A stretch of DNA of 64,000 bases. Source: an uncultured Alphaproteobacteria bacterium. Lineage in GTDB: Bacteria; Pseudomonadota; Alphaproteobacteria; RF32; CAG-239. How positions within the stretch are numbered: the stretch's first letter is position 1; every line of letters starts with the position of its first letter. This document shows positions 403-31,073 of this stretch, one piece after another. The notes beneath the pieces are model-generated. The model saw only the letters and a program-made list of their open reading frames with translations, searched no databases and was not told where the DNA came from. The DNA is taken from the NCBI GenBank assembly GCA_934277435.1, contig CAKQUE010000001.1, positions 65,652-129,651 of the forward strand. Direction: 5' to 3'. The position numbers and the translations under genes are program-made.

Positions 403-1056
403 TTAATAAGGCTGTAAGTCCACCCAAATATTGGCATAAGTATCTTCTTTTATTATTTGATTACACCTGTCAGCAATTTCCGCGAGAGAAATATTTTGGT
501 CTTTTGACTTATCATACAGATATACGGGAGATGTTCCATTTACATTAGTGGATTCCGAATCTTTCACCCACATAACAGCATTATTTACTTCAGAGTTTTT
601 CTTTGACACGGCAATAAGATTTTGGCAAAAATCCTTTCCCGACGGAGAAAAAGAAGACCCCGTTATAACCCTATAGGAAACAGCCATAACCATTCTAAAA
701 CTCTTGCCTCTGGTTCCATCTCCTTTGTCCAACGTCCATAAACCATAATGCAAACTGACATAAATTCCATCTTTAGTCGAAATTCTTTGATATTCATAAC
801 TTGTACCTTCCGGAATATCCCCCATTGCGTATAAAACCGGAGTAAGGTCATCCCAGGTTGTTGATTTTGAATCCAGATTAGGCTTTAATTTTATGGAAGC
901 CGCAATAATTTCTTCAAGCATCTGCCTTTGACTGTTGGAACGCCATTTCAACATCGCTTTTGAATATCCGGCAATTCCACCGACAGACAACACGGCAATT
1001 ATAGCAAGCACCCCCAGCATCTCTATCATTGAACGGCCATATTGATTATTTTTCAT
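403..1056 (-). CDS. Type IV pilin-like protein with a prepilin-type N-terminal cleavage/methylation domain (pilin paralog 1), 217 aa from ATG at 1056
   Basis: N-terminus MKNNQYG|RSMIEMLGVLAIIAVLSVGGIAGY has the class III signal (G at -1, E at +5, hydrophobic helix) typical of T4 pilins and pseudopilins. RBS AAGGGGAAG lies upstream of the ATG at 1056; the ORF-track start at 1122 is an upstream extension. Two Cys are present in the C-terminal half. Confidence 0.6.
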   Translation of the reverse strand: MKNNQYGRSMIEMLGVLAIIAVLSVGGIAGYSKAMLKWRSNSQRQMLEEIIAASIKLKPNLDSKSTTWDDLTPVLYAMGDIPEGTSYEYQRISTKDGIYVSLHYGLWTLDKGDGTRGKSFRMVMAVSYRVITGSSFSPSGKDFCQNLIAVSKKNSEVNNAVMWVKDSESTNVNGTSPVYLYDKSKDQNISLAEIADRCNQIIKEDTYANIWVDLQPY

Positions 1057-1260
1057 AACAACTTCCCCTTTTTTCAATTTAACAACAAAAAAACCGCCGA
1101 AAAAGCGGCCGGAAGTTGACAACTACTTTACACAAGATAGCGTAGCATATTAGCTAATAGCATATTTTGCTACCTTCCGGCCAGTTGAGCCAGAAGTTAT
1201 GCTAGTTTAGTGTCCGCTATTGCAGACATGTGTAAAAGAGGTTGTCACGCCCCAGACAGA
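1057..1260 (-). promoter_or_regulatory. Structured 5' leader of pilin paralog 1: long-range closing helix, internal hairpins, and a GC hairpin plus U7 tract (intrinsic-terminator-like) immediately before the RBS, with an alternative antiterminator pairing
   Basis: On the minus-strand RNA, CCGGCCGC-UUUUUCG-GCGG is followed by UUUUUUU and ends about 25 nt before the ATG. A 9-nt segment (plus 1174-1182) is perfectly complementary to the 5' half of this hairpin (plus 1107-1115). A closing helix pairs plus 1241-1246 with 1116-1122 and flanking bases. The homologous leader at 19727-19921 supports a functional element. Confidence 0.4.
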
Positions 1261-6885: not shown

Positions 6886-8456
6886 TATTTTTTCCTCCGG
6901 ATAAGGCGAAGAATCTCATAAATATCTATCACTCTGAATATTCTAGCCAAGATAAAGAAAAATGCAAGCGCAAAGATACCCAAACCGCATAAGCTCAAAA
7001 ACAGAAGCCACTTAGAACCATATATCCAATTTGGATACAAAACCGACAATTCGCAGCGGCAAGCATAAATAGCAGCTCCGGTTAGCAAGGAAACCGCAAT
7101 AATGCGGCATATTTTACCCAAAAGCGGACGCGAAAATTGCCAATATCCACGTTTTTTTAGCCCAATCACATACTGCAGCAAAGAAACAAAAGCGGCAATA
7201 GTGGTGGCGCAGGCAATTCCAACGTGCCCATAGTCACGCATCAACAGCAATATAAACGCCAAGTTTGTAAAAAACACTACAGCGCTATATTTTACCGGCG
7301 TAACCGTATCACCACGGGCAAAAAAGTTTGGCATCAGCGCTTTAGTCAGCACATAACAAGGCAGACCAATCGAATAAGCAATGACCGCGTACGCTGTTTT
7401 TACAGCATCGGCCGGCAAAAATTTACCATGCTGGAACAAAAGACGAACAATAGGTTCTGCCAAAACAATCAGCAAAACCGCAGCCGGCAGCGACAACAGA
7501 AAACCGTATTCAACCGCCTTATCCTGAGTGTTTCTTGCCTCATCTATTTGATTTTCTTTTAGATATTTAGAAAGAATCGGCAACAAAGCCACACTGATTG
7601 CGGCCCCGATAACGCCTAGAGGCAGCTGCTGTAAACGGTTTGCATAATAGAGCCAAGAAATAGCTCCGGTGCCGACAAGCGAAACCAAAATCGTATCTAC
7701 CGCCATATTAATTTGATAGATACCAGCGCCAACCACCCCAGGAGCAATACGCTTGAACAAAGTTTTAATTTCGGGATTACGCAGAATCTTCACAATGTGC
7801 AAATACGGATTTATTTTTATATCTATACGGTGCAGAAAATAGCGCAGCCAAAAGACTTCGAGCAAACCGGCAGTGGTTATGCCAAGAGCAAAACCATGGG
7901 CAGGAGTTGGAGTAAACGGCACAAATAAAAACACCGAAAAAATCATCATCATATTCAAAATAATCGGCGCGGTAGCCGGAGCGGCAAATTTTTCAAACGA
8001 ATTTAAGATTCCACCCTGAAAAGAAACTAATGAAATCAAAAGCAAAAACGGAAAAGTTATGCGGCAAAGCTGGGTAGCCAAAACTAATTTTTCGGGCTCG
8101 CTGCGAAACCCGGGAGCTAAAACATCGACCACATAAGGCATAAAAATTTCAAACATTAAAACAAAAAAGCCAACAAACAACACTAAAACCGAAATTGCCT
8201 GCGCGGCAAAAAATACGGAGCGTTTTTTGCCATCTGACACCAGTTTTTGAGAAAACAATGGCACAAACGCGCTGGTGAAAGCCCCTTCGGCAAATAGGCT
8301 ACGGAACAAATTTGGCAGTTTGAACGCCACAACAAAAGCATCGGAAATTGCTCCGGCGCCTAAAAAATTTGCTAAAACCATATCACGCAGAAAACCGGTT
8401 ATTCTGCTGACCAAAGTTAACCCGCCAAAAGTGGCGACTGATTTAAATAATGACAT
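6885..8456 (-). CDS. murJ: Lipid II flippase MurJ (MviN)
   Basis: 523 aa, polytopic, with the conserved MurJ N-terminus (LTLVSRITGFLRDMVLANFLGAG..SDAFVVAFKLPNLFR). Confidence 0.85.
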   Translation of the reverse strand: MSLFKSVATFGGLTLVSRITGFLRDMVLANFLGAGAISDAFVVAFKLPNLFRSLFAEGAFTSAFVPLFSQKLVSDGKKRSVFFAAQAISVLVLFVGFFVLMFEIFMPYVVDVLAPGFRSEPEKLVLATQLCRITFPFLLLISLVSFQGGILNSFEKFAAPATAPIILNMMMIFSVFLFVPFTPTPAHGFALGITTAGLLEVFWLRYFLHRIDIKINPYLHIVKILRNPEIKTLFKRIAPGVVGAGIYQINMAVDTILVSLVGTGAISWLYYANRLQQLPLGVIGAAISVALLPILSKYLKENQIDEARNTQDKAVEYGFLLSLPAAVLLIVLAEPIVRLLFQHGKFLPADAVKTAYAVIAYSIGLPCYVLTKALMPNFFARGDTVTPVKYSAVVFFTNLAFILLLMRDYGHVGIACATTIAAFVSLLQYVIGLKKRGYWQFSRPLLGKICRIIAVSLLTGAAIYACRCELSVLYPNWIYGSKWLLFLSLCGLGIFALAFFFILARIFRVIDIYEILRLIRRKK

Positions 8457-8857
8457 TATTTTACCTTATTTTTTTATCTTTATTACAAAATAGCGTCTTT
8501 AAGTCAGATTGTATAATAAAAAAAATTATTGATAACAACTAAATATCAATATGAGTTGCCGCTGGCAACAAACATTAACCATTGCCATCAGCATTAGCAC
8601 TCATCATAACAATTTGATTATGCAGAACTTTTTATTCTAGAAGAGGGTAAGAATAACGACCGTTATTTTTACCCATTTAAACAGAGAATTTTGAATGTTA
8701 CAGAAATATGAAGAAAATGCTGAAAACTTAAATAGTTATTGCATATTGGCGAAAAATCGGATACCCTATTTATAGTAGTTTTTTGTGTATAAAAATAACG
8801 ACCGTTTTTTAGGACATAAAAAGCTAAGAAGAAAATATTTTTTAAGGAGGCTTTACG

Positions 8858-10867
8858 ATGAATAAGATGAAGCAAATAGCGGCTTTGACGGCTATGCTGG
8901 TTGGCGTGATTATGTATGCGTCGCCGGCAAAATCTGCAGTCTGTTTTTTGCCTGATGATGACGGCAGTTGCGGCGGCGGAGATATAGAAATTTCGGACGG
9001 TAGCGGTAGCGATGACGATAAACCGGTAAAAGAATGCAGCGGTTTTACGGTTAGTGCCACAAATTATGACAAGATGAAAGATTGTTTTAATTTTACATAT
9101 TGCACAAAATCAAAAACAAAAGAAGTAGTCTATAAAAAAGGGGGTAAAAAAAGCAATACCCACTGGTATCCTAATTGGAACGCTTGCTGCACAGGTGGAA
9201 CAGCCTATGATTTGAGAGAAGGTAAGTGTTGTCCGGCTGGCGGCTGTGTACACGACGAATGTGACGCCCCGAAAGTATGGAGCAGCATTTTGGGTAACTG
9301 CGTATGTCCGGCTGACAGAGAAGAAAATACAACTAGTAATACGTGTTGTCCTGTTGGCGAACACGCAGATGGTGCGATTTGCTGCCCAGAGAAAAAACAT
9401 AATGACGGCGGCAAGTGTGTGTGTGATGCCAATTATATTCCTGACGGAAACGGTGGTTGTAAAATACCAAGTGTATCCGAAGCTTGTGAAAAAATTAACT
9501 CTGCGTATGTTGCGTTTACTTCCAATGATGACTGCCACAATATTTGTCCGGAAGGTAAAGCGCCTAAATTTATGACGACTGTTGCAAATGGCGCATGCGC
9601 AATTTGCCAACAAACAACCATAAACATTAACATAAATGAAGATGTTGAGATGATTGATGGCACTTCCGGTTTGCAACATGCTAAAATTAAATCATTAAAC
9701 CGCTATGCAGGGTTTACCACAAGTGTTGAGAATGGCTATAATTACAGTGAATTAGCTAAACATAGCAGATGTTCAAGAAATGATAATGATTACAAGGTAG
9801 ATCTTGAAATTATCGGAAAAACATCTGACAGCGGTGTTAGAGATTATAATGCTCCATCGGTATCACCTATAACAACTGCTTCCATGGCTCCTGTTTCTTA
9901 TCCGTTATCAATATATGGAAAAACCTCACAACCTGAATGGGCTTTGTATTGGACCAAAACATTAGCTACGGAAAATGGCAAAAAAGCAGATGCAGAAACA
10001 GGAGGTGGCGTATTCAAAGTTGCAGGAAAAGCTATCTACGGTTTTCCGATGGCGGATACGAACAACTTAATTTCCGGTTTTAGCAAATTAAAGGATTTGG
10101 TTGTACAACCAGGAAAACCATCTGATAATCCATACATTTTGAAATTTACACATAATTTATCTGATTCTGTAAAAAAATGTCGTGAGATTAACGAATTCTA
10201 CGTTTCTGAAAGTGAATCTTGTTATCCAAATAAGACTAAAATGGATGCAGTAGGTCGAGATGGACAGTGCTATGCTTGTAATTCTTGTACTATTAAATCC
10301 GATTGTAAAACTGGTTATACTTTCATTCCAGATTCACCAGCTCATACCGACTACAATGGTAGAAAATGCGGTACGTGTAGTAAAACATATTATATTGATA
10401 TTACGCCGTTTATTGTAAATATAGATAACAATTGCGCAGTAAATGCTAATGTTGATTTAAGCACAGATTCTTCGGCTAAAAATGACCGCTTTATCATAGA
10501 TAATGAAGTTGAGTTGTTTGGAGATGTAAATGTATATATTCGCGAAGGGAAGAAATATGCTCAACTCTCTAACAAATCATTTCTATTAAAAAATGTAACT
10601 GACATTTGGTATGCAGCTGATTATCCAGAAATATATAATGAAAAATTTTGTGAATTGTATAAAAATCGTTATCCGGGAGTATTAGGTAACGGGGTAGATG
10701 GAAAGTTTTATGATTGTGTCGGTGTTGACGACTCTACATCTATTTATATACGCGCAAAAAATAAACGCTATGACTTTGGAACAAATAATTGCGTAACCTT
10801 GTATATAGGTAATGATAATCGAACTATTTGTTATAGAACCAGCAAATTTTCTTGTTCACTATACTAA
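8858..10867 (+). CDS. Large secreted cysteine-rich repeat protein (candidate surface or host-interaction protein)
   Basis: Strong RBS AAGGAGG. Signal peptide MNKMKQIAALTAMLVGVIMYASPAKSA. The N-terminal ~220 aa are packed with Cys, including four or five degenerate CC-[PT]-x-G...G-K/N-C-V units. Acidic Gly/Ser/Asp linker. Own terminator downstream. Confidence 0.7.
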   Translation: MNKMKQIAALTAMLVGVIMYASPAKSAVCFLPDDDGSCGGGDIEISDGSGSDDDKPVKECSGFTVSATNYDKMKDCFNFTYCTKSKTKEVVYKKGGKKSNTHWYPNWNACCTGGTAYDLREGKCCPAGGCVHDECDAPKVWSSILGNCVCPADREENTTSNTCCPVGEHADGAICCPEKKHNDGGKCVCDANYIPDGNGGCKIPSVSEACEKINSAYVAFTSNDDCHNICPEGKAPKFMTTVANGACAICQQTTINININEDVEMIDGTSGLQHAKIKSLNRYAGFTTSVENGYNYSELAKHSRCSRNDNDYKVDLEIIGKTSDSGVRDYNAPSVSPITTASMAPVSYPLSIYGKTSQPEWALYWTKTLATENGKKADAETGGGVFKVAGKAIYGFPMADTNNLISGFSKLKDLVVQPGKPSDNPYILKFTHNLSDSVKKCREINEFYVSESESCYPNKTKMDAVGRDGQCYACNSCTIKSDCKTGYTFIPDSPAHTDYNGRKCGTCSKTYYIDITPFIVNIDNNCAVNANVDLSTDSSAKNDRFIIDNEVELFGDVNVYIREGKKYAQLSNKSFLLKNVTDIWYAADYPEIYNEKFCELYKNRYPGVLGNGVDGKFYDCVGVDDSTSIYIRAKNKRYDFGTNNCVTLYIGNDNRTICYRTSKFSCSLY

Positions 10868-10933
10868 AGCTTTAAATTTTCCTAAGGAGGTGATTTAGAC
10901 ACATAAAAATTAAATCGTAAAGCCTAAAAATCA

Positions 10934-10975
10934 AACCGCAGTTCTCCCCCAAGTTTACTGCGGTTTTTGTTTGCT
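10934..10975 (+). terminator. Rho-independent terminator of the cysteine-rich protein gene
   Basis: AAACCGCAGT...ACTGCGGTTTTTGTTTG: 9-bp stem plus T-tract. Confidence 0.5.
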
Positions 10976-11078: not shown

Positions 11079-11429
11079 ATGTCTAATGAACCTAAAAAAG
11101 AAACAACCTTGCGCAGAAGTTTTGCAATGCAAAATCCTGTGGTGTTGGCGCATAATGAAACGGTTGCCGTAATGAGCAAACCGCTTGCCGATGCTTATTT
11201 TAACGGGGAAGTGACTAAGTTTGAAGGTAAAGTTATCGATGCTGGCAATGATGCTGTGAATGTGCAAACTCCTAGCAAAATGGCTATGTATGCAGTCGAA
11301 AACGGCGGTTACATCAGTTTTGCTTCTGGCTTAAATGAAGCGGTTGGAGTTAATGTGCAAAAAATCCGCCGGTTGAATGCAGATATCCATGTTGCCGCGC
11401 TGAGCAGCCGTTCTAATTCTTATTCTTAA
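11079..11429 (+). CDS. Hypothetical small protein (116 aa), monocistronic
   Basis: RBS GGATTGAAAAATG. The ORF is bounded by terminators on both sides. No recognisable family. Confidence 0.45.
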   Translation: MSNEPKKETTLRRSFAMQNPVVLAHNETVAVMSKPLADAYFNGEVTKFEGKVIDAGNDAVNVQTPSKMAMYAVENGGYISFASGLNEAVGVNVQKIRRLNADIHVAALSSRSNSYS

Positions 11430-19108: not shown

Positions 19109-19726
19109 TTAGAAGTTCAAAATCAACGAACAATAGCGCAAATCTTCATCATCTATACATGATTTGCATATTTGATTTATTTCTGTAAGTTTCAAATCAC
19201 GTAAACACTCGGTATTTTCATCACCGCAATATGCATTGCCATAATAATAACTTGAGGGAAATTGCCAACGATAAAAACGAACCATGTATAAAACATCGCT
19301 TAGCGGCTGAGCAAAATCTCGAAGCATTGCTTCACAAAATTTGCCTGCGGCTTTGCCATTGCCTTTTCCTTGAATTATTTCCAGTTGAAAATGCCCCGAA
19401 CGAGTGAATATTCCAACTTGATTTCCCCAAGTATCCCTTAAATCTTGAACACTAACTCTAGACCATGTTTCCGGAACTAAATTCATAGCCTTAACCGTTT
19501 CAACTAAGGGATACTGCGTTCCCTCTTTATTTATATTGTTAAATTCATCTATATGTTCAACTAAACCCGCCACAAACATCGAATATTCGCCGACAGTCTT
19601 ATTTATCCGCCACATTTCCATAGCTTTTGAATATCCCGCAATACCACCGACAGACAACACTCCAATAATAGCAAGTACCCCAAGCATTTCTATCATTGAT
19701 CGACCTTGTTGATTTTTAATTTTCAT
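19109..19726 (-). CDS. Type IV pilin-like protein with a prepilin-type N-terminal cleavage/methylation domain (pilin paralog 2), 205 aa from ATG at 19726
   Basis: N-terminus MKIKNQQG|RSMIEMLGVLAIIGVLSVGGIAGYSKAM is nearly identical to paralog 1 over the class III signal; the C-terminal domain is diverged and Cys-rich. RBS AAGGAG upstream of the ATG at 19726. Confidence 0.6.
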   Translation of the reverse strand: MKIKNQQGRSMIEMLGVLAIIGVLSVGGIAGYSKAMEMWRINKTVGEYSMFVAGLVEHIDEFNNINKEGTQYPLVETVKAMNLVPETWSRVSVQDLRDTWGNQVGIFTRSGHFQLEIIQGKGNGKAAGKFCEAMLRDFAQPLSDVLYMVRFYRWQFPSSYYYGNAYCGDENTECLRDLKLTEINQICKSCIDDEDLRYCSLILNF

Positions 19727-19921
19727 ACATCTGAACTCCTTAAACACCAAAAACAAAACCCGCTTTTAGGCGGGCGGATGTTCAGAAACCGTGTATACGC
19801 AAACGGCTCGGCTTATTCAGCTCATAGCCTTATTTAGCCGACATCCGTCCAGCGGAAATCGGCATATAAAAATTTAAGTCGTTTATGCATAACGACTGCG
19901 TATACAAAAAGGGTTTCTGAC
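19727..19921 (-). promoter_or_regulatory. Structured 5' leader of pilin paralog 2, homologous to the leader at 1057-1260, with a terminator-like hairpin plus U-tract abutting the RBS
   Basis: Minus-strand RNA: the closing helix UCAGAAACC/GUAUACGCA pairs with UGCGUAUAC/GGUUUCUGA (plus 19783-19801 with 19897-19920). It contains internal hairpins and a GCUAUGAGCUGAAUAAGCC block homologous to paralog 1. A terminal CCCGC-CUAAAA-GCGGG hairpin is followed by UUUUGUUUUUG. The alternative pairing GACGGAUGU/ACAUCCGCC overlaps the 5' strand of the terminator. Confidence 0.4.
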
Positions 19922-30329: not shown

Positions 30330-31073
30330 TTGGATAATATAATTAAAAATTTAAGCAAATTGACAACCTTTGTGGTCGCTTTTTTTGTTGCCGCTTATTT
30401 TTATTTTACTTACAAGGGATTTATGATTGATGAAAACGGGCAGATTGTTTTGCGTACGCAAATTGCAGCTGCTGCCGAAAAACACGGAATAGCTACCGTA
30501 TTGCCAGACAATCTCCATCTAAATGCTTCAGAAAAATATGCCGAAGGCTCTCTTGGCGCTCCGCTTACTTTATATGAGTTTTCATCTTTGGGCTGCCCGC
30601 ATTGCGCAGATTTCCATTTAGACGTTATTCCCGAGCTTAAAAAAGAATATGTTGAAAAAGGGCTTTTGCGCATTATCTTTGTAAACTTTCCTTTAGATAA
30701 AAAATCAATGGAAGCAGCCATGGTATTGCAATGCGCCTCCGTAGACAATTATCAAGGATTACTATCTCGCTTATTTGACAAGCAAAGATTTTGGTATCTG
30801 TCCAGCAATACTGACCAACTGCATAACTATGCCGCAGAATTTGGAATTAGTTACAGCGAAGCCGAAACATGCCTTCATAATGATGCTATGGCGCAGTCAA
30901 TTATATCTGATCGCCAGCAAGGGCTTAAACAGCTTGGCATGACAGGCACCCCGGCTCTTTTATTCAGTGGCCGCGATGGAAATGAAATAATTTATTCTGC
31001 CGCAAGTTTTAGCTCGCTCAAAAAATATCTTAATGACAGATTAACACGTTTAGGAGTAAAATCTGTTCAATGA
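30330..31073 (+). CDS. Membrane-anchored DsbA-family thiol:disulfide oxidoreductase
   Basis: CPHC active site; N-terminal TM anchor; thioredoxin fold length. Confidence 0.75.
   Translation: MDNIIKNLSKLTTFVVAFFVAAYFYFTYKGFMIDENGQIVLRTQIAAAAEKHGIATVLPDNLHLNASEKYAEGSLGAPLTLYEFSSLGCPHCADFHLDVIPELKKEYVEKGLLRIIFVNFPLDKKSMEAAMVLQCASVDNYQGLLSRLFDKQRFWYLSSNTDQLHNYAAEFGISYSEAETCLHNDAMAQSIISDRQQGLKQLGMTGTPALLFSGRDGNEIIYSAASFSSLKKYLNDRLTRLGVKSVQ

Follow-up and report, generated by a model that had tools for sequence, protein, structure and literature searches.

In Campylobacter fetus, the surface protein SapA possesses a conserved N-terminus of ~180-200 aa, a presumed cell-surface anchor, and a divergent remainder that is subject to recombination between homologues; the conserved block of these homologues starts shortly upstream of the open reading frame (ORF). 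SapA is Cys-poor, leaves the cell through a type I system, no signal peptide being cleaved off, and is served by a single promoter moving among clustered silent cassettes. The Bab/Sab proteins of Helicobacter pylori are multi-locus paralogues with conserved ends, which undergo gene conversion between loci and carry disulfide-clasped loops in their exposed domains. The SapA/SapB family and its 'segmental conservation' have been described (PMC4232325), as have Giardia lamblia's variant-specific surface proteins (VSPs), a Cys-rich (~12%) extracellular coat, disulfide- or metal-stabilised and thought to resist proteolysis (PMC3656445). The VSPs have a variable N-terminus, a conserved C-terminal transmembrane helix with a CRGKA tail, and Cys residues found mostly as CXXC (PMC3656445). 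Here we describe gene X, which lies at positions 8858..10867 of a 64,000-nt stretch of DNA (hereafter the window) from an uncultured Alphaproteobacteria bacterium (GenBank assembly GCA_934277435.1, contig CAKQUE010000001.1, positions 65,652 to 129,651 of the forward strand).

The theme on which X has evolved, namely a conserved handle, a polymorphic head and several loci, is already known. An earlier note on this DNA, made from its letters alone, had drawn attention to the Cys-rich part of the encoded protein; to this it can now be added that this part constitutes the conserved handle, the remainder being a hypervariable recombining cassette region found at several loci. We propose that X is a disulfide-stabilised, exported and variable recognition protein (an adhesin or a coat antigen), composed of a conserved handle and recombining head cassettes, and regard this proposal as having about an even chance of being correct. 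The parts of X referred to below are the following:

8858..8929, + strand: residues 1-24, the Sec signal peptide; signal-peptidase I is predicted to cut after S-P-A24
8930..9034, + strand: mature N-terminus, residues 25-59, with the loop C29-FLPDDDGS-C38, GGGDIEISD and an acidic Gly/Ser linker
9035..9472, + strand: conserved Cys-rich stalk, residues 60-205, with an alpha/beta cap, then four units of the CC-hairpin type and a CxCxxxYx7C hairpin that is EGF-like
9473..10867, + strand: variable head, residues 206-669, made up of Cys linker 1, cassette 1, Cys linker 2 and cassette 2
residues 206-251, + strand: Cys linker 1 of the variable head
residues 252-437, + strand: cassette 1, beta-rich and Cys-poor
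residues 438-530, + strand: Cys linker 2 of the variable head
residues 531-669, + strand: cassette 2 of the variable head

A search of 5.8 billion proteins revealed 111 homologues of X, one of which (P0113) is 100% identical to it, and the sole label found among them was 'MAG: hypothetical protein [Alphaproteobacteria bacterium]'. According to BLAST, conservation is limited to residues 1 to ~205, with 45-72% identity (~30% in an outlying group), and the C-terminus of X is common to only four homologue clusters. The C-terminal parts of the homologues (~460 aa in X) fall into about 15 unrelated clusters. An exhaustive HMMER search with residues 252-669 against 1.84 billion representatives returned five proteins. 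P0112 alone among them falls outside the allele group of X; it matches in no more than the last ~200 aa (cassette 2), at 54% identity, and carries them on a different N-terminal family. Collinear similarity to X ends at residues 201-212 in 58 of the 111 proteins, at residues 213-260 in 39 and at residues 474-507 in 6, that is, just past the last invariant Cys and within the two Cys-rich linkers. The linkers themselves (~208-251 and 438-477) are alike (CEKINSAYV…GACAIC versus CREINEFYV…GQCYAC; Smith-Waterman z = 3.3, p≈0.009). Taken together, the position of the joints, the likeness of the linkers and the occurrence of cassette 2 on P0112 indicate that X consists of a handle plus two exchangeable cassettes. 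The handle is mosaic as well: three N-terminal polymorphisms (a variant of the signal peptide, a variant of segment 48-109 and the presence of unit 163-186) occur in 7 of the 8 combinations, which implies recombination inside the handle.

Comparison of related genomic regions (designated L001 to L014) placed the family at two main loci, with the following gene orders:

locus A: murJ – X – small ORF – CDF transporter – ABC (the window, L001, L006, L007, L010, L011)
locus B: MatE – tRNA-Val – Cys/His-rich membrane ORF – X – tRNA-Glu – sodB (L002-L005, L013, L014)

At locus A, the window and L001, which belong to the same species, are 96-97% identical over 7 kb on each side of the gene; they retain 85% identity over positions 8615-9150 and share no DNA similarity over positions 9150-10877, from codon ~98 to just past the stop. 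The same picture is seen among the locus B relatives, the flanks of which are 97-98% identical and the gene bodies of which cannot be aligned past the first 140-600 nt. When the window was compared with L002-L005 by blastn, similarity began at positions 8835-8841 (94% identity with L004 over the 157 nt of 8841-8997), and the upstream regions of the two loci are unrelated before window position 8835. L001 and L011 carry at locus A the same full-length allele type (72-82% identity) that L002 and L013 carry at locus B; the types are therefore not locus-specific. The source genome very probably holds at least two copies with different heads, X and its 750-aa paralogue P0005. No silent or partial donor copies were detected in the 64-kb window by tblastn with all homologues, and a local archive of the pilS or vls type was accordingly rejected for this locus.

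The substitution pattern points to alleles that are both old and constrained. Between X and its counterpart in L007 (same species, same head type), synonymous divergence (dS) amounts to 0.14 and non-synonymous divergence (dN) to 0.041, the corresponding values for five flanking genes being 0.02-0.05 and 0.001-0.006. Since the dS of X exceeds that of its flanks, the alleles are older than their background, having been either imported by recombination or held by balancing selection. Within the type, X is under purifying selection, with a dN/dS of 0.29 overall, 0.05 for residues 252-437 and 0.5 for residues 531-669, and each head is, to judge from these ratios, a constrained, functional protein. 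A diversity-generating retroelement was rejected as the source of the variation, for whole domains differ rather than adenine-specific sites and the alleles show a high dS; no evidence of hypermutation of X was found either. Compositionally, the variable part is atypical (GC content at third codon positions, GC3, of 0.24, z≈-2.8, against 0.36±0.04 in neighbouring genes) and the handle is typical (0.39).

The gene itself is real. The ORF, which was correctly delimited at 8858..10867 (+) and credited with a Sec signal peptide in the earlier note, encodes 669 aa and starts with an ATG situated 7 nt downstream of a ribosome-binding site (RBS), AAGGAGG, graded as strong. The signal peptide is of the Sec type, with a basic n-region followed by the hydrophobic IAALTAMLVGVIMYA and Ala at position -1 in all three subfamilies; its cleavage was deduced from the -3/-1 rule. 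The peptides that had been quoted as examples of the Cys-rich units, ACCTGGTAYDLREGKCC, KCCPAGGCVHDEC, TCCPVGEHADGAICC, ICCPEKKHNDGGKCVC and GGCKIP, are all located in X. The count of more than 35 Cys given for residues ~30-250 was too high: X contains 40 Cys in total (6.0%), 25 of them in residues 28-250 and the other 15 past residue 250. For comparison, window ORFs no shorter than 200 aa have a median Cys content of 1.0%, and the highest value after that of X is 3.0%. As to the degenerate units, four short ones of the form CC[PT]xGxx[HY]xDGxx do occur, and there is no long repeat array. The four vicinal CC pairs are found at residues 110, 124, 163 and 175; such pairs are, to our knowledge, rare in bacteria.

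Across the 112 members of the family (X and its homologues), Cys 29-201 are invariant apart from clean indels of whole units, a pattern that exceeds chance. In the stalk (residues 60-205), this holds for 18 Cys; an example peptide of the handle as a whole is DIEISDGSGSDDDKPVK. Unit 163-186, comprising 24 residues and two CC pairs, is cleanly missing from 42% of members, 6% lack the first CC unit, and the outlying group has acquired one unit more; Cys are therefore gained and lost in fours. The CC pairs of the handle are spaced CC-x12-CC…CC-x10-CC, and it is CC and CxC that prevail, CXXC being minor in the family (4 in X, present in 67 of the 112 members). In the N-terminal alignment, the signal peptide and the SPAKSAVCFLPDDDGSCGGGDIEISD stretch that follows it are conserved at 94-100%. 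The acidic Gly/Ser linker of the mature N-terminus carries a net charge of -7, and residues 25-59 have a predicted local distance difference test score (pLDDT) below 50 in the AlphaFold model, the N-terminus being therefore probably flexible. The CFLP…G.C loop is the sole motif common to the X family, the sister family P0112/P0147 and the P0105 group, and it lies 2-4 residues past the predicted signal-peptidase I site, with Ala at -1, in all three branches. By a rule-based comparison with the lipobox [LVI][ASTVI][GAS]C, X does not conform (S-A-V-C29, with V at -1 and K at -5) and neither does the sister family (A-K-V-C); the P0105 group (G-L-S-C) is the only branch that comes near to it.

The number of Cys is even in 100 of 111 mature homologues (binomial p = 4e-19). 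A catalyst of disulfide formation is encoded in the window, where the earlier note had rightly pointed to a DsbA gene:

30330..31073, + strand: membrane-anchored DsbA-like oxidoreductase (Thioredoxin_4 E=3e-27, DSBA E=1.6e-7) with a CPHC active site

The even Cys counts, the four-Cys indels and the CPHC-type DsbA together support fully paired structural disulfides, not metal ligation, and the DsbA-like protein is presumed to catalyse the formation of the disulfides of X. The same observations bear on the idea that X is a periplasmic Cys-based metal or redox buffer, tied to the cation diffusion facilitator (CDF) transporter at locus A and, in the case of locus B, to the Cys/His-rich membrane protein as well as to sodB. 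Cation-efflux or metal-related genes do adjoin both loci, and the Cys density is very high; however, the parity of the Cys and their gain and loss by whole four-Cys units speak for structural disulfides, His residues are few, and hypervariability of whole domains within a species would not be expected of a buffer. In addition, the neighbouring genes lie on opposite strands or behind terminators, and a sister-family locus has no metal genes around it. A role of this kind seems very improbable to us.

When modelled alone (residues 56-255), the handle was predicted by AlphaFold with a mean pLDDT of 83.6 as a short helix and a small sheet, followed by two-stranded hairpins. A Foldseek search of this model against the PDB gave no match at E≤1e-3. 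The weak top matches (TM≤0.18) were MUC5AC (E=0.034), Pfs25/Pvs25, the Entamoeba Gal/GalNAc lectin and p75NTR, all of them eukaryotic extracellular Cys-rich arrays. It had been suggested previously that the Cys-rich part resembles granulin or EGF-like folds, and a eukaryote-like module of this sort, horizontally acquired from a eukaryote or mimicking host proteins, was considered. What stands of this is the architectural class, that of disulfide-laddered hairpins; the family does not. Regular-expression searches for the full granulin motif C-x5-6-C-x5-CC-x8-CC-x6-CC-x5-CC-x4-C-x5-6-C and for its CC-8-CC-6-CC core found neither in any of the 112 members, and the Granulin profile PF00396 matched neither X (E≤10) nor 54 diverse members (E≤0.01). 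The EGF signature PS00022 (C-x-C-x2-[GP]-[FYW]-x4-8-C) is present in 1 of the 112 members; a relaxed EGF-like CxCxxx[FYW]x4-8C hairpin (CVCDANYIPDGNGGC) is present in 59. No matches to the Pfam families EGF (PF00008), TNFR, Furin-like or VSP were obtained in X or in the 54 members; with respect to the Giardia VSP family (PF03302), the C-terminus of X is variable and lacks a hydrophobic tail. The family profile found no match among PDB chains, and every homologue is bacterial and sits in a conserved housekeeping neighbourhood. It is simpler to suppose that small disulfide-laddered hairpins have converged, and descent from or mimicry of a eukaryotic protein appears highly unlikely.

Other searches were equally silent. 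With X, no meaningful match was obtained in Pfam, NCBIfam or PDB sequences even at E≤10, and with the 54 members none was obtained in Pfam (E≤0.01) or PHROGs, that is, no toxin, enzyme, peptidase, nuclease or phage domain. Nor did Pfam report an autotransporter or outer-membrane protein domain, and the C-termini, the last residues of which include K, Q, Y and H, are unrelated between types. The CysRRep family (bioRxiv 10.64898/2026.06.07.730663) was considered and found to be unrelated, both its spacing (Cx6-9Cx5-7Cx8-11Cx7-8CC) and its context being different. The family of X, exported and packed with Cys, is thus new and uncharacterised; the Cys pattern is retained in the orthologues and no housekeeping family matches, which leaves the earlier note's view of an unusual protein intact.

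Among 185,579 GTDB species representatives, a single one, the uncultured Alphaproteobacteria bacterium UMGS1578, carries X. All habitat-labelled records with homologues are gut metagenomes or gut metagenome-assembled genomes, including Hadza stool and 'gut.metagenome'. The family is restricted to an uncultured human-gut alphaproteobacterial lineage, and the question whether its homologues are confined to host-associated organisms is thereby answered in the affirmative. The secreted and disulfide-rich nature of X that the earlier note had supposed was supported, and its suggestion of a surface or host-interaction protein was judged plausible. Of the horizontal acquisition that had also been supposed, exchange of alleles within the lineage is borne out; phage, plasmid or eukaryotic relatives are lacking. 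No relatives of X were found on viral contigs (IMG/VR), in INPHARED phages or in PLSDB plasmids and the flanking genes are of the housekeeping type, for which reasons carriage by a phage or plasmid was rejected.

The sister protein P0112 has a different Cys-rich N-terminal region, without the CC ladder and with FAKVCFLPDAGDDC directly after the signal peptide; its relatives P0143-P0152 keep ~215 N-terminal residues and diverge beyond them. A member of this sister family occupies a third context, locus C, with the gene order rpmB – X' – ankyrin-repeat protein – H+-pyrophosphatase (H+-PPase). The ankyrin-repeat protein, encoded 3' of the sister gene at positions 9588-10328 of L008, is unusual in free-living bacteria and hints at a eukaryote-associated lifestyle of the gut lineage.

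Downstream of X at locus A lies a further variable gene, which has counterparts in the related regions:

11079..11429, + strand: small variable ORF, 116 aa, without a signal peptide and without a Pfam match
counterparts of the small ORF: L001 10199-10513; L007 9218-9556; L006 10160-10507; L011 6953-7267

The presence of this ORF raises the question whether X could be a polymorphic secreted toxin or bacteriocin, with an N-terminal part for export, receptor binding or translocation, a C-terminal killing domain and the small ORF as its immunity gene. Such a view is favoured by the conserved-N, variable-C architecture with its sharp junctions, by the polymorphism of X within a species and by the fact that the adjacent small ORF is itself hypervariable, existing as three unrelated types (104-116 aa) that begin with 'MS(N/D)' behind a conserved upstream region of ~220 nt and that take each other's place even among genomes of one species. 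However, the types of the small ORF do not track those of the head: the window and L007 share the head and have unrelated small ORFs, L006, from another species, has a small ORF 80% identical to that of the window next to a different head, and the two types are discordant in 2 of the 5 locus-A genomes. Downstream of the locus-B copies there is no such ORF, only a non-coding repeat and a tRNA gene. This discordant assortment and the lack of an equivalent at locus B argue against a toxin-immunity pair. Furthermore, no known toxin, peptidase or nuclease domain was recognised in the 54 members, the variable part (~460 aa, two domains, Cys-rich) is unlike the typical toxin tips of 100-200 aa, and no Rhs, contact-dependent inhibition (CDI), type VI (T6SS) or type VII (T7SS) secretion context is present. 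Taken as a whole, a toxin is an improbable identity for X, and the small ORF is probably an independently assorting adjacent cassette, not a functional partner.

Returning to the proposal of an exported variable recognition protein, its working may be pictured as follows. The handle (residues 1-205) would serve Sec export, oxidative folding by the periplasmic CPHC-type DsbA, protease-resistant spacing, and attachment or sorting; it comprises the signal peptide, the N-terminal CFLP…G.C disulfide loop, an acidic and probably flexible linker, and a rigid ladder, built of beta-hairpins that CC pairs cross-link, the length of which varies by whole units. The head (residues 206-669) would be the functional exposed part, made of two beta-rich cassettes joined by Cys-rich linkers. 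The heads fall into about 15 ancient types, which would be shuffled by homologous recombination between strains and between at least two paralogous expression loci, anchored in the 5' block that begins at the RBS, in the Cys linkers and in the housekeeping flanks. The diversity of the heads could be kept by balancing or diversifying selection exerted by host immunity, by phages or by ligand specialisation in the gut.

Several observations weigh against this proposal. In a diderm cell, a Sec-exported protein would need a way across the outer membrane or a means of attachment to it, and X has neither a lipobox nor an autotransporter barrel, shows no sorting domain at its C-terminus and has no secretion genes next to it. 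In the full-length AlphaFold model, confidence is restricted to residues ~60-220 (pLDDT 75-88), being moderate at ~440-520 and below 35 at residues 251-434, which makes the model of the head unusable; it gave only non-significant beta-sandwich echoes in low-confidence regions, which were not used. No ligand-binding fold was recognised in the head, the fold matches being non-significant. The dN/dS of X never exceeds 1, so that diversifying selection has to be deduced from the age of the alleles and the diversity of types, not site by site. Finally, the codon usage of X, which is ordinary, and its GC3 give no sign of a very highly expressed coat protein.

The last point tells equally against a more specific possibility, namely that X is an S-layer-like coat subunit, the N-terminus of which anchors it to lipopolysaccharide (LPS) or the outer membrane, as in C. 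fetus SapA, and the variable lattice of which undergoes antigenic variation by cassette switching. Its size (65-95 kDa), the conserved N-terminus of ~200 aa, the strong RBS and the presence of several loci that have in common a 5' block, running from just upstream of the ORF, are all in line with such a role. S-layer proteins are typically Cys-poor, though, and the family contains 5-11% Cys; neither an S-layer homology (SLH), RTX or type I secretion (T1SS) signal nor adjacent type I secretion genes were found. Each locus has an upstream region of its own instead of silent cassettes and an invertible promoter, and the 64-kb window is devoid of silent copies. We therefore consider an S-layer subunit improbable too; the toxin, S-layer, metal-buffer and eukaryotic-transfer readings are each disfavoured by specific tests.

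The transcriptional surroundings of X comprise the following features:

8645..8674, + strand: distal AT-rich palindrome, GGGTAAGAATAACG-AC-CGTTATTTTTACCC, with 14-nt arms that are 93% complementary
8783..8812, + strand: proximal copy of the palindrome core, TAAAAATAACGACCGTTTTTT, overlapping the extended -10-like TGTGTATAAAAA
8835..8857, + strand: shared 5' leader and RBS, AAGGAGGCTTTACG, where the homology between locus A and locus B begins
10933..10975 (approximately), + strand: intrinsic terminator of X, a 10-bp stem AACCGCAGUU…AACUGCGGUU followed by UUUUUGUUUG

Both the AT-rich divergent region of ~400 bp with repeats and the monocistronic gene with a terminator of its own, as described in the earlier note, were recovered. 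The region between the divergent murJ and X (8457-8857) is 401 bp long, with a GC content of about 0.29, and the 13-mer AATAACGACCGTT has two copies in it and none in the rest of the 64 kb, against an expectation of 0.09. The terminator (10-bp stem and U-run, -14.3 kcal/mol, z = -3.3) is credible, and was missed by a simple terminator scan because of its 14-nt loop. As RNA, the distal palindrome would form a 13-bp hairpin (-16.7 kcal/mol, z = -6.5); its core AATAACGACCGTT is kept in all locus-A relatives, including L006 of another species. It is a candidate operator or hairpin. The proximal copy may be the promoter and operator of X, the extended -10-like TGTGTATAAAAA being located about 50-70 nt 5' of the ATG; a consensus promoter scan made no call there. 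The two copies at locus A, with palindromes at 8645-8674 and 8790-8810, are 142 nt apart, conform to the consensus AAWAACG-NN-CGTTWTT and are conserved across species. The palindrome is absent from locus B, so that regulation probably differs between the two loci. It is conceivable that the palindromes act as operators for a regulator of the X locus.

Several smaller elements were noticed around these loci. A GTTGCC…GGCAAC hairpin upstream of X (8555-8570) is also found inside a non-coding tandem element of locus B. Same-species locus-A relatives (L001 at 7610-7740, L010 and L011) have an insertion of ~95 nt near window position ~8575, which holds a AGATCCTAGGC…GCCTAGGAT hairpin and may be a small mobile palindromic element; a similar hairpin is located 3' of the locus-B stop codon (L003 8963-9019). 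The tandem element of locus B is a GC-rich non-coding duplication of ~200-230 nt between the paralogue and tRNA-Glu (L003 9148-9546, L004 9427-9744), with copies 93-98% identical; Rfam reported nothing in it or in the window. On the other side of the paralogue, between it and tRNA-Val and near sodB, an ORF of 172-187 aa (L003 6240-6803, L004 6285-6803, L005 6272-6802) encodes a protein with a metallothionein-like N-terminus CCCNKNCDCGCQEGKECTCGCGCGCGCCC, one transmembrane helix, a His-rich HDHDHHSHK-repeat tail of strain-variable copy number, and no Pfam match. In L006, a Cys-rich ORF of 109 aa (9616-9945) runs in a different frame across the 3' end of the 877-aa homologue; it could represent either a continuation after a frameshift or a spurious call.

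Elsewhere in the window, two pilin-like ORFs, 403-1122 (-) and 19109-19756 (-), share a prepilin-type N-terminus …GRSMIEMLGVLA… (N_methyl E=0.005 and 0.001, respectively). The latter contains 7 Cys. The former lies within segment 397-1353, which has no similarity to the same-species L001, so that it represents a second strain-variable surface gene.

A bolder version of the proposal, which we put forward tentatively and hold to be more doubtful than the proposal itself, is that proteins with a signal peptide and CFLP loop make up an unrecognised bacterial variable-surface system, in which the disulfide-laddered stalk, comparable in principle with gut protists' Cys-rich coats, is attached to the outer surface via the CFLP…G.C loop and the heads are drawn from a population-wide pool of cassettes at 2-3 expression loci. 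Were this true, an uncultured human-gut alphaproteobacterium could vary its antigenic or adhesive surface, and novelty would extend to the fold, to the sorting signal and to the multi-locus cassette system. The invariant CFLP loop may define a new sorting or anchoring signal, and the handle, as modelled, is a compact and confidently predicted bacterial disulfide-ladder module. Replacement of alleles at X within the same species is among the sharpest seen, several loci take part, and the heads form a pool that appears both ancient and functional; loci of this kind usually mark molecules that face the host, phages or competitors. X should lend itself to the typing of strains and to the question of which selective forces act on little-known residents of the gut. 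No principle is overturned, the value of X being that of a new family and a testable system.

As far as known systems are concerned, X resembles SapA in its conserved N-terminus, its divergent remainder, the 5' block common to several homologues and its recombination-driven variation. It differs from SapA in its 6% Cys, its Sec signal and its dispersed loci with upstream regions of their own, no silent cassettes having been found in the window, and the two share no similarity in sequence or fold. With the Bab/Sab proteins it has in common the paralogues at several chromosomal loci and the movement of alleles between them; those are outer-membrane proteins, however, in which a C-terminal beta-barrel is conserved, whereas X has neither a barrel nor C-terminal conservation. 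Polymorphic toxins (CdiA-CT, Rhs, MafB) likewise combine a conserved N-terminus, a sharp junction and a recombining polymorphic C-terminus, but X is without a demarcation motif, a recognised toxin domain, a co-varying immunity gene or a dedicated secretion system nearby. Granulins are set apart by their spacing, CC-x8-CC-x6-CC-x5-CC as against CC-x12-CC and CC-x10-CC in X, and the family of X is bacterial and lineage-restricted. The Giardia VSPs are also gut-dwelling and Cys-rich, with one part conserved and the rest highly variable, yet their polarity is reversed, CXXC is minor in X, X has no transmembrane anchor, and the VSPs are eukaryotic. By analogy, then, the nearest counterparts of X would be C. 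fetus SapA and H. pylori Bab in architecture, and the Giardia VSPs in chemistry and habitat.

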